DNA from: Gemmatimonadota bacterium
Lineage (GTDB): Bacteria > Gemmatimonadota > Gemmatimonadetes > Palauibacterales > KS3-K002
NCBI GenBank assembly: GCA_039586795.1
Contig: JBDHJS010000002.1
Location: 1 to 64,000 of the forward strand
Direction: 5' to 3'
Length of the DNA stretch: 64,000 nt
Each line of letters opens with the position of its first letter. The stretch's first letter is position 1. Below are positions 49,045-52,072 of the stretch, piece after piece. A model generated the notes under the pieces. The model was given only the letters and a program-made list of their open reading frames with translations, was not told the DNA's origin and ran no database searches. Made by a program: the position numbers and the translations under genes.

Positions 49045-49363
49045 CGCTCCTCCTTCTGGTATTGCGTGTGACGGAGCCATAGGCCCCACAAACCTAACGT
49101 CGGGCCTTGGCGATTACCAACCTCCGCCGGCAAGCCAGCGGTTGACCTCGACGATCCGTGATCTCGGTGCCGTCCCAAACCCCGTAAACCCGGCACACGC
49201 CTATCCTTACGCCAGACAGGGATTGCTCGGGAGCGACGTTATTAAGCGGGCTAGGGCCTGGGGAGTAACAATATGTAGCGGGTGAGGCGCATTGGCAACG
49301 GTGGACCGAGCCTGCCGCAACACCAAAATTGACTCCGGGCGGGTCGGGCACAAGATTGGGGTT

Positions 49364-50350
49364 ATGAACAACTCAACTCAGACTCCGGCACCAGCCAGCC
49401 GAGTCAAGCTAACGGATATCTCCTCCCGGTCCTGGGAGCACCCAGCCGACCGGGCAGCCCTCCGCAGCCTCAACACCATCCCCGGCTTCTCCGATGTCGT
49501 TCGCAAGATCGTCGGTCTATTCGGAGAGCGCGGACTGAGGCTGTTCTTCCAGGCGCAAGCGGTTCGTGTGACCCCAAACCAGTACGGGTGGATTCACGAT
49601 CTGCACCTGCGGTCCATCGATACCCTCGATCTCGGTTGGGAACCGGAGCTCTACATCTCGCAGACTCCGGTGGTCAACGCGGGCGCCCTAGGTGTCGAAG
49701 AGCCCTTCGTGTTGATCAACAGCGCCGCGATCGACCTGCTCAGTCCAGAGGAGCTAGAGACCGTCCTCGCCCATGAGATCGGGCACATCGCCAGCGACCA
49801 CGTCCTGTATCGAACGGTCTTCACCCTGCTGCTCCTGCTCGCCCAGCGGCAGCTTCCCATAGCCGGGATCGCGATCGGAGCAGTCATCCTGGCGATGGCC
49901 GAGTGGAACCGCAAAAGCGAGCTGTCCTGCGACCGTGCGGCGCTGCTCGGGACACAGGATCCCGACGCCGTGATGGGCGCCTTCATGAAGCTGGCAGGCG
50001 GCACCGATCACCACAGCGACGCTCTCAATCTGGGCGAGTTCATTCAGCAGTCCGACGAGTACGAAGAGGACGAGAGCCTGGGCGACGCGGTGTTCAAAGT
50101 CATGAACCTGCTCGGTTCCACCCACCCGTTCCACGTCCTACGAGTCGGCGAGCTGCGACGCTGGATTCGAGAGGGTCACTACGACCGGATCATCCGCGGC
50201 GAGTACGTGCGGCGAAGCGAGTCCCAGCGTGCCTACAAGGAGGATGCCAAGGAAGCGGCGTCCTACTACAGCAACGCGGTGAAGAAAGGGATCAGCAAGC
50301 TGAGCGCTTTTCTGGATGACGCCCTAAAGGGCGGGCCGGTGGATTTATAG
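49364..50350 (+). CDS. M48 (Ste24/HtpX-like) metallopeptidase
   Basis: WEHPADRAAL, HEIGH, ELSCDRA, STHP. Confidence 0.9.
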   Translation: MNNSTQTPAPASRVKLTDISSRSWEHPADRAALRSLNTIPGFSDVVRKIVGLFGERGLRLFFQAQAVRVTPNQYGWIHDLHLRSIDTLDLGWEPELYISQTPVVNAGALGVEEPFVLINSAAIDLLSPEELETVLAHEIGHIASDHVLYRTVFTLLLLLAQRQLPIAGIAIGAVILAMAEWNRKSELSCDRAALLGTQDPDAVMGAFMKLAGGTDHHSDALNLGEFIQQSDEYEEDESLGDAVFKVMNLLGSTHPFHVLRVGELRRWIREGHYDRIIRGEYVRRSESQRAYKEDAKEAASYYSNAVKKGISKLSAFLDDALKGGPVDL

Positions 50351-50366
50351 GATCGTTCCGAACATG

Positions 50367-50602
50367 TCGACAGCCGACAGCGGACAGCCGTCGCTCGACG
50401 GCCGAGGACTATTCGGCGATCGACGTACTACGCCCGATTTTCTTCAGTCGACGCCCTAACCGCCGGTCTTCCTAGTCAAACCACATCCACTCCCCGCCAG
50501 CCAGGGAACGTCGAATGACGACCGCAGGTCGTCGGTCGTCGGGCGTCGAATAGTCCTCGAACGTCGAGCGGCGAATTTCGGCTGTCGGCTGTCGGCTGTC
50601 GA
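50367..50602. repeat. Long imperfect inverted repeat (~52-59 bp arms) with terminal heptamer repeats, MITE/REP-like
   Basis: Left arm TCGACAGCCGACAGCGGACAGCCG..CGCTCGACG..CGAGGACTATTCG (50367-50418) is mirrored at 50544-50602. Confidence 0.75.
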
Positions 50603-50667
50603 AATAGACCGACCGCCGGCCGCCGCCATCGATGAATGTAGGACGTCGAACGTCGAAATGACCCCAC

Positions 50668-50700
50668 AAAAAAAGGGGCACCCAAAGGCGCCCCTTTTTA
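50668..50700 (-). terminator. Intrinsic terminator, best on the minus strand (possibly bidirectional)
   Basis: Minus strand GGGGCGCC-TTTG-GGTGCCCC-TTTTTTT; the G-U pair becomes an A-C mismatch on the plus strand. Confidence 0.85.
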
Positions 50701-50954
50701 CTGAGTCGAGCATTGTCGTTCAAGTACTGAATCGGTGCGCTGCCTAGCCGCTTGGCGGCTGAAGAGAAGAGGAAATGTCATAGACCCGATCAGCAGCGAT
50801 ACACCGGGTGCCAGCACTCTGGTAGCCAAAATCGAACTACTACGCTCTACTCAAGATCTATACCTTCACACCTGCTCCGAGAAGAAGGAACCCACGGTCC
50901 TCCTCTACCCACCCTCACAGGAGGAAATGCCGGATTACCATGTTCTCCCGGCTC
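50668..50954 (-). ncRNA. Candidate structured small RNA (~290 nt), family not recognised
   Basis: TAAACT -10-like box at 50960-50965, consecutive hairpins with G-U pairs favouring the minus strand, duplicated CAUUUCCUC, own terminator, no credible long ORF. Confidence 0.55.
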
Positions 50955-51037
50955 TCACTAGTTTAGATGCTGCCTGAGCCAGAATCGTTGCATCCTGCAG
51001 GTCAAGGCCGAATCCCGGCTCCATAGGAAAGACACCG

Positions 51038-52072
51038 GTGAAGCCAAAAACGTTAAACGTGCCGCCCCACTTCGATCCCCCGTCGGTAGGTAAGGTCTGG
51101 CGCGTCCGGTACGCCCAGCGGGCCGACGAGGCTGCCCTCTGGTCCCATCGCAACGATATTCGCGCCGCGGCGGAAGACTCGGCAACGATCTGCCTGGTCC
51201 TCGTCGACTGTCAAAACACCTTCTGCGTTCCCGATTTCGAACTCTTCGTCGGCGGTCGCTCAGGTCGCGGGGCGGTCGAGGACAACGTTCGGCTCTGCGA
51301 GTTCATTTACCGCAACCTCGGCGCCATCACGCTCATCGCGCCGACGATGGATACGCACACCGCGATCCAGATCTTTCACCCCGTGTTTTGGGTCGACGAA
51401 GCCGGGAATCACCCGCTCGGTGGTCAGACCGTGATCACGCAGGCGGATGTGGAGGAGGGTAAGTGGAGGGTGAACCCGGGGGTCGCGGCTGACGCCGCCG
51501 ACGGCGACCAGGAGTTCTTGAGCCGCTACGCGCTGCACTACGTCCGCACGCTCACCGAGGGCGGCAAGTACCCGCTCCTCGTTTGGCCCTATCATGCCAT
51601 GCTCGGCGGCATCGGTCACGCCCTTGTTTCCGCCGTGGAAGAAGCCGTCTTCTTTCACAGCATCGCTCGAAGAACCCAGCCCCGGTTCGAGCTCAAGGGA
51701 AGCATTCCGCTGACCGAGCACTACTCGGTGCTCCACCCTGAGGTAATGGAGACCCATGACGGCGTCTCGATTGGCGCCGTGAACACGAGCCTGATCGACA
51801 AGCTGCTCGAGTTCGATGCGGTGCTCATTTCCGGCCAGGCGAAGAGCCACTGCGTCGCCTGGACGGTTCACGATCTCTTGAGTGAAATTTACGACCGAGA
51901 CCCGGCGCTGGCCGAGAAGGTCTACCTGCTGGAGGATTGTACCTCACCCGTTGTCGTGCCGGGAATCATCGACTTCACGGAGCAAGCCGACCGCGCTTTT
52001 GAGGTCTTCAGGGATGCCGGAATGCATATCGTGCGTTCGACTGACCCGCTGGAGAATTGGCTGCGCGTGTAG
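51038..52072 (+). CDS. Isochorismatase/nicotinamidase-like cysteine hydrolase (long form)
   Basis: VDCQNTFC, DTH, WPYH, GQAKSHCV, LEDCTS motifs. Confidence 0.85.
   Translation: MKPKTLNVPPHFDPPSVGKVWRVRYAQRADEAALWSHRNDIRAAAEDSATICLVLVDCQNTFCVPDFELFVGGRSGRGAVEDNVRLCEFIYRNLGAITLIAPTMDTHTAIQIFHPVFWVDEAGNHPLGGQTVITQADVEEGKWRVNPGVAADAADGDQEFLSRYALHYVRTLTEGGKYPLLVWPYHAMLGGIGHALVSAVEEAVFFHSIARRTQPRFELKGSIPLTEHYSVLHPEVMETHDGVSIGAVNTSLIDKLLEFDAVLISGQAKSHCVAWTVHDLLSEIYDRDPALAEKVYLLEDCTSPVVVPGIIDFTEQADRAFEVFRDAGMHIVRSTDPLENWLRV

Follow-up and report, generated by a model that had tools for sequence, protein, structure and literature searches.

On its minus strand, the window (the whole 64,000-nt stretch of DNA analysed here) carries a predicted small RNA of about 291 nt whose promoter boxes, 14-nt internal motif and terminator, as judged from aligned homologues, are conserved as one unit. 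It is likely a new RNA family, confined to one bacterial family among the genomes searched. We read it, with a probability of roughly 0.55, as an ECF-induced, chaperone-independent base-pairing sRNA that would work like FoxI and FoxJ of Fusobacterium.

A promoter-to-terminator unit on the minus strand

The features of the locus are as follows.

49292..50350, plus strand: M48 peptidase gene, convergent (PF01435, E 1e-22)
50668..50699, no strand assigned: hairpin of the intrinsic terminator, with 7 U (minus) and 5 T (plus)
50668..50958, minus strand: predicted small RNA, ~291 nt, with its start placed from the promoter (~50956-50959)
50701..50854, minus strand: long 3' rod with branched apex, in long variants only (5 of 28 copies)
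50746..50760, minus strand: GCCGC/GCGGC hairpin, in 5 of 5 long variants
50764..50779, minus strand: CU-rich anti-SD-like stretch at the apex of the 3' rod, unpaired probability 0.73
50856..50869, minus strand: core motif GUGNAG(U/G)NAUAGAU, 14 nt, candidate seed or protein-binding site
50921..50929, minus strand: first CAUUUCCUC, specific to this copy
50929..50952, minus strand: 5' hairpin GCCGG/CCGGC, kept in only some genera
50934..50940, no strand assigned: GAAAC box at a fixed position, degenerate (GGTAAT) in this copy, AAAC at the same place in 25 of 28
50959..50964, plus strand: putative sigma70-like -10 box TAGTTT of the divergent gene, overlapping the ECF promoter
50963..50969, minus strand: ECF-type -10 box CATCTAA, 17 nt after the -35 box
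50987..50992, minus strand: ECF-type -35 box TGCAAC; in 26 aligned copies AC is invariant and GCA present in at least 90%
51038..52072, plus strand: nicotinamidase/isochorismatase-like gene, divergent, the usual neighbour (atlas matches 0.96-0.98)

The initial annotation had proposed a lineage-specific non-coding RNA on the minus strand between two plus-strand genes. Both flanking genes do lie on the plus strand, and the proposal itself holds up: promoter, motif and terminator are kept together within one family whichever way the downstream gene points. The boundaries and the strand are supported by this comparative evidence, that is, by the conservation of a promoter-to-terminator unit. Every motif it named was found in place, with TAAACT at 50960-50965, CAUUUCCUC at both 50921-50929 and 50769-50777, and UUCCUUCUUCUC at 50879-50890. 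The nicotinamidase-like neighbour gene gave no Pfam, NCBIfam or PDB match. Between the M48 gene and the terminator lies an inverted repeat with 86-nt arms (50364-50605), REP- or MITE-like, with copies on at least 7 other contigs.

The terminator had been described as a minus-strand element. Its 7-U tail is there, but its restriction to the minus strand is not, as the plus strand offers 5 T and the M48 gene points into the hairpin. With 7 U on one strand and 5 T on the other, the terminator can serve both directions and is likely bidirectional. A terminator scan did not list the 50668-50699 hairpin; a similar hairpin ends the homologues. The hairpin is also retained in at least five genomes in which the next gene is co-directional (G002, G006, G014, G016/G007 and G022, from translations), which argues for a transcript of the RNA's own.

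Conservation within one of the families examined

BLAST gave clear matches to the element in 2 of 60 relatives. Upstream of the homologous neighbour gene, the full unit was present at 21 of 27 family loci, cut by a contig end at three and absent from three. Its parts follow a constant order: TGCAAC-N16/18-C(A/G)TCNAA, TAGTG, the GAAAC box, a stretch that varies, GUGNAG(U/G)NAUAGAU, a 3' section that also varies and, at the 3' end, a GC-rich hairpin plus a run of U. The promoter-plus-TAGTG pattern occurs in 11 of 15 family genomes and is absent from the 285 genomes searched elsewhere in the class. With a model trained on the sequences of 26 copies alone, the unit is detected in 24 of 31 family genomes; copies from 19 of these went into the model, and five (G003, G007, G027, G028, G030) are independent of it. 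The unit is thus conserved in relatives, as had been asked of a real RNA, and was seen in no other family examined. A metagenome search with a pattern of the promoter end alone returned 13 loci, and all 13 also carried AUAGAU and the hairpin; six repeated known copies and seven were new distinct sequences, bringing the collection to 28 copies. These measure 162-295 nt, most homologues being 160-210 nt, and since kin are not independent such homologue counts show range rather than significance. Among the matches listed, the named records bearing the unit are titled Gemmatimonadota (L086, L093, L100, L101, L124), and those of a contig-wide pattern scan were mostly unrelated ECF promoters.

Five family genomes without the unit (77-93% complete) yielded no core motif. 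Outside the family the pattern of this motif occurs in 2 of 300 other genomes of the phylum, in neither case in this architecture. An exact core motif in another family (L241, G199:C23:206-225) reads as the Shine-Dalgarno (SD) sequence and start of a protein gene. The sequence model matched 7 of 114 sister-family genomes at E 0.003 or worse, and the three matches inspected were protein-gene promoters or lacked a promoter. Its other matches were weak, those inspected being other ECF promoters or the sibling RNA described below. None of the viral contigs carried the element.

An ECF-type promoter with probable overlapping DNA signals

The TAAACT box lies where it had been placed but reads differently: it is the tail of an ECF -10 element (TGCAAC-17-CATCTAA), and the promoter is ECF-type, not sigma70. 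A sigma70 promoter scan gave 0 sites. In the available text of the sources, ECF promoters have in common AAC at -35 and CGT(C/A) at -10 (PMC5758882), and the Fusobacterium sigmaE motif, with which the RNA promoter agrees, is AAC plus GTCWAA (PMC9546586). A like promoter (GCAAC-16/17-CGTCTAA) lies upstream of an ECF sigma gene in this genome (C14, start 11474, minus strand), and orthologues of that gene have the same promoter type upstream in 26 of 27 family genomes, the one miss being cut by a contig end. The ECF promoter pattern occurs 313 times in the 31 family genomes, compared with 152 for a reversed control. A looser GCAAC..CRTCYA pattern is not enriched in this genome overall (35 vs 36), with 10 vs 5 between genes. 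As the genome encodes 22 sigma70-family genes, the cognate sigma factor of the RNA promoter can only be inferred.

The fixed GAAAC box is probably promoter DNA, likely serving as the -35 element of either a tandem ECF promoter (GAAAC-17-CGTA) or the promoter of the divergent gene. CGTA follows it at 17 nt, giving an intact second promoter, in 3 of 28 copies. The GAAAC-17-CGTA type occurs 131 times in this genome vs 47 for the control, and 71 vs 5 between genes. On the other side, the box stands 18 nt from an opposite-strand TAnnnT ahead of the neighbour gene; TAnnnT is found in 27 of 28 copies, at a constant 18 nt from a hexamer starting with TT. A shortened copy in G027 (L385, G027:C35) sits beside a different divergent gene and has lost the GAAAC box, while ECF promoter, core motif and terminator are all retained. 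This genome also appears to hold a large GAAAC-N16/18-CGTA ECF-type regulon (the 71 intergenic sites vs 5 in the control), with many sites before ABC permease-like and PadR-like genes, named here from their sequence.

The core motif and the exchangeable 3' domain

GUGNAG(U/G)NAUAGAU is the sole nearly universal transcribed motif. Every AUAGAU position is conserved in 27-28 of 28 copies; for the UG and AG that precede it the figure is 26-28. The mean unpaired probability of the core motif is 0.63 vs 0.40 for the body; across the 28 copies it has no constant pairing partner and is paired in several. No shared ORF or conserved peptide was found in any frame among the homologues. A plus-strand ECF promoter built on the core motif was considered and rejected, its geometry being present in only ~4 of 28 copies.

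The description of the RNA as highly structured did not survive: the fold has z -3.24 on the minus strand but -3.12 on the plus strand too, and without the terminator it is no better than shuffles (z -0.20; -0.84 in another run). The listed stems are partly alternatives to one another. The GCCGC hairpin is confirmed by both the minimum-energy fold and a five-copy consensus; GUAGUU/GGCUAC and ACCCGGU/AUCGGGU are absent from both. In the 5' hairpin, a copy's own pairing exceeds foreign-genus pairing in 20 of 28 cases and shuffles in 16 of 28. Attempts at a family-wide consensus structure yielded 0 pairs on 21 5' domains and 7 weak pairs on 9 copies. A GGAAAC/GGUUUCC helix was dropped as a general feature, being strong in only 10 of 28 copies, and switch or pseudoknot models were unsupported across the family.

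The long 3' rod behaves differently in the five copies that have it: 86% of cells pair, compared with 38-44% in slid controls. Of its 45 pairs, 13 change on both sides, a value that 0 of 500 shuffles reach, but this covariation is overstated because the structure was derived from the same five sequences. Behind the constant motif, the 3' domain varies from 34 to 191 nt and is exchangeable among copies. In G006 (L065:2806-2931, plus strand) an unbroken hydrophobic ORF of 41 codons, with its SD sequence, lies within the rod; the frame is broken in the other four long copies, has no Pfam match and reaches a best atlas score of 0.86.

CU-rich stretch and candidate targets

Duplication of CAUUUCCUC had been put forward as a core feature, complementary to SD and start regions and suited to pairing with ribosome-binding sites. 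The family does not bear this out: the exact motif occurs in 3 of 28 copies and is doubled in 1 of 28, the present one. Eight of 28 copies have a looser CA..CCUC motif in their 3' part. None of 3926 predicted starts, obtained by rough calling of genes in this genome, the one genome covered by the whole-genome target scan, reads GAGGAA directly followed by ATG. The 16S rRNA 3' end was not found in this assembly. When five seed candidates were run against start regions, the best duplex energies fell within the range of shuffled seeds. The top-ranked partners of the CU-rich seed were a DUF481 protein and lpxD, both envelope genes, and both pairings are lost in G002 despite the same stretch being present there (the DUF481 comparison in relatives leaves out the G009 row).

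For the core motif, a strict complement to the invariant positions was found at two sites beyond the locus itself, one of them at +3 of a family-2 glycosyltransferase gene. Pairing at that start ranges from -8.5 to -26.9 kcal/mol over 21 genomes with no covariation, and permuted motif patterns match a start region 5% of the time. Three candidate targets were checked in relatives; none showed covariation, and no target survived.

Possible traces of a transcript

Five sequencing runs contained a small share of the stretch, and four were examined in detail. Pieces at least 99% alike cover the element at 50827-51043 (X1), 50787-51008 (X3) and 50674-50825 (X4), the X4 contig ending at 50674, inside the U tail. 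In X2 the near-identical piece falls in the neighbour gene, off the RNA. These contigs are unstranded at depth 2-4, X1 and X3 reach 50-85 nt beyond where the RNA is predicted to start, and DNA may be the source of X1 and X2.

Relation to known RNA classes

As the initial annotation had supposed, the RNA fits no known family: Rfam gave no family at threshold in the window (0 at gathering score). Weak matches in the region were driven by the terminator only, as they were in 8 homologous or sibling loci. It is likewise neither tmRNA nor RNase P, as no model matches at the element and the true genes lie on other contigs (C19, C20). A riboswitch or 5' leader does not fit because the downstream gene is convergent in this genome (G000), in G004 and in genus g4, and there is no Rfam match. 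The genome, 97.8% complete, yielded no Hfq, ProQ, CsrA or KhpB N-domain in searches whose controls were positive; therefore no helper is known for this RNA. The element accordingly departs from Hfq- or ProQ-dependent sRNAs, for which the chaperone gene was not found, and from CsrB/RsmZ sponges, for which there is neither a CsrA that could be found nor repeated GGA loops. Two features expected of ECF/sigmaE-dependent sRNAs are present, namely a conserved ECF promoter and a terminator of its own without a conserved ORF. A tRNA-Sec gene is present in this genome.

A 6S-like, RNAP-binding role had also been suggested. RF00013 finds nothing in this 97.8% complete genome, and the element lacks both an RF00013 match and an end-to-end rod with a central bubble. 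The suggestion is weakened by a separate 6S-like rod with paired ends between zapA and an rny-like gene (L223:1823-2060; C23 of this genome, ~84366-84603, plus strand), a site that we take to be a usual 6S position, which literature searches did not confirm. This rod has z -2.68 and a sigma70-like promoter, is kept in 3 of 5 relatives tested and is missed by RF00013.

The sigmaE sRNAs of Proteobacteria include MicA and RybB. MicV and VrrA are Hfq-dependent members of the same group (PMC6694218). So far as the available text describes this type, the present RNA resembles it in ECF control, its own terminator and a short conserved motif in a variable scaffold, and differs in that such RNAs need Hfq, which was not found here, in having its motif internally rather than at the 5' end, and in the lack of an Rfam match. 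With 6S (RF00013), Ms1 and CoRP, as the accessible part of PMC11077062 presents them, it shares the size range of its short variants and a stand-alone gene, and differs in lacking an end-to-end rod, in its ECF promoter and in the existence of a better 6S candidate elsewhere in the genome.

The closest likeness we see is to the sigmaE-dependent FoxI and FoxJ of Fusobacterium nucleatum, which, in the available text, act through C-rich seeds in a species without Hfq (PMC9546586, PMC11005410). Measured against that text, the common points are an ECF promoter (AAC at -35, GTCWAA-like -10), a stand-alone RNA, a host in which no Hfq was found, a C/U-rich loop in some copies and, elsewhere in the genome, a second RNA behind a promoter of that kind. 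The present RNA differs in being longer and modular, with a universal motif that is purine-rich rather than a C stretch, and no sequence relation was found. This likeness rests on promoter type and anatomy; membership would rest on induction and targets. A search of the open-access literature found no paper on small RNAs of Gemmatimonadota.

The second non-coding unit of this genome (C91:108519-108812, plus strand) has the same ECF promoter together with a tandem GAAAC-17-CGTA promoter and its own terminator. It contains C-rich stretches and anti-SD motifs better than those of the RNA reported here, and is likely a sibling sRNA. Its loci are L192, L329-L333, L388, L391, L396, L397, L399 and L403. 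In this genome and in genus g4 it lies between what we presume, from motifs, to be DinB-like and Hsp15-like genes.

Proposed mechanism and alternative explanations

In the mechanism that we favour, the conserved autoregulated ECF sigma factor, or a relative with the same preference, would activate the RNA promoter, and the RNA would run from there to its own terminator, with the start placed from the promoter. GUGNAG(U/G)NAUAGAU would act as the shared seed, and the exchangeable 3' domain with its CU-rich loop may be a lineage-specific second pairing site for ribosome-binding regions. Short pairing would then repress or tune mRNAs without Hfq or ProQ, making the RNA the non-coding arm of an envelope-type stress response.

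The conserved pieces might instead be DNA signals, with overlapping divergent promoters, a transcription factor site for the nicotinamidase-like gene in the 14-nt motif and a shared terminator, any RNA being a by-product. Both the GAAAC box and AANNTA make plausible promoter DNA, the body folds no better than chance and the terminator could serve convergent genes too. We nevertheless consider this unlikely: the 14-nt motif is neither palindrome nor repeat, lies 66-128 nt from the start and is retained in G027 beside a different neighbour gene, while the rod covaries and the terminator persists before co-directional genes. Nor was an NrtR found in the genome, and an NrtR-like box occurs in 0 of 28 copies. 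A little less probable is an ECF-made RNA that binds protein, for instance by serving the ECF holoenzyme as a decoy. Read in reverse complement, AUAGAU gives the ECF -10 (ATCTA), and GAAAC resembles an ECF -35. A single short motif, mostly unpaired, in a scaffold that can otherwise be exchanged would suit protein binding, and neither a conserved mRNA target nor a chaperone was found; against this, the promoter-mimic geometry (UAGAU, 17-18 nt, GUU) is present in only ~4 of 28 copies, and the copies share no rod with a central bubble. We hold as equally doubtful the broader reading of an ECF-induced, modular, chaperone-free RNA whose motif is not an mRNA seed and serves either as such a decoy or as a start-stop ribosome trap.

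Translation of the RNA seems slightly less probable again. The motif would be a ribosome-loading start-stop mini-ORF (NUG-NAG-NNA-UAG), with a small membrane protein in some lineages that has decayed here. The motif opens with GUG, AUG or UUG in 27 of 28 copies (AUU in 1), and three codons later an in-frame UAG follows in 27 of 28. SD energy upstream of the motif is -3.7 vs -2.3 for random sites and -5.3 for genes, and in G006 the hydrophobic 41-codon ORF lies directly behind the motif. However, other NUG sites in these RNAs score -2.9, UAG is never replaced by another stop, and neighbouring third positions are invariant, unlike the fourfold sites of the neighbour gene, whose identity is only 51%; the G006 frame, without a Pfam match, is broken in the four other long copies. 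That the element is the organism's unrecognised 6S RNA is very improbable. RF00013 finds none in the genome and most homologues measure 160-210 nt, yet the element has an ECF promoter and no end-to-end pairing, and the zapA-rny rod, with its sigma70-like promoter, z -2.68 and retention in 3 of 5 relatives, is a separate candidate.

Significance

Because metagenome assemblies are where the hosts are known from, direct tests are limited. Were the decoy reading true, the RNA would be a 6S-like brake on an alternative sigma factor. A family-wide RNA under ECF control, together with the sibling unit behind the same promoter type, would carry the non-coding arm of ECF stress responses into another phylum, in a genome where no Hfq, ProQ, CsrA or KhpB was found, and the exchangeable 3' domain behind a constant motif would be a natural case of modular sRNA evolution.
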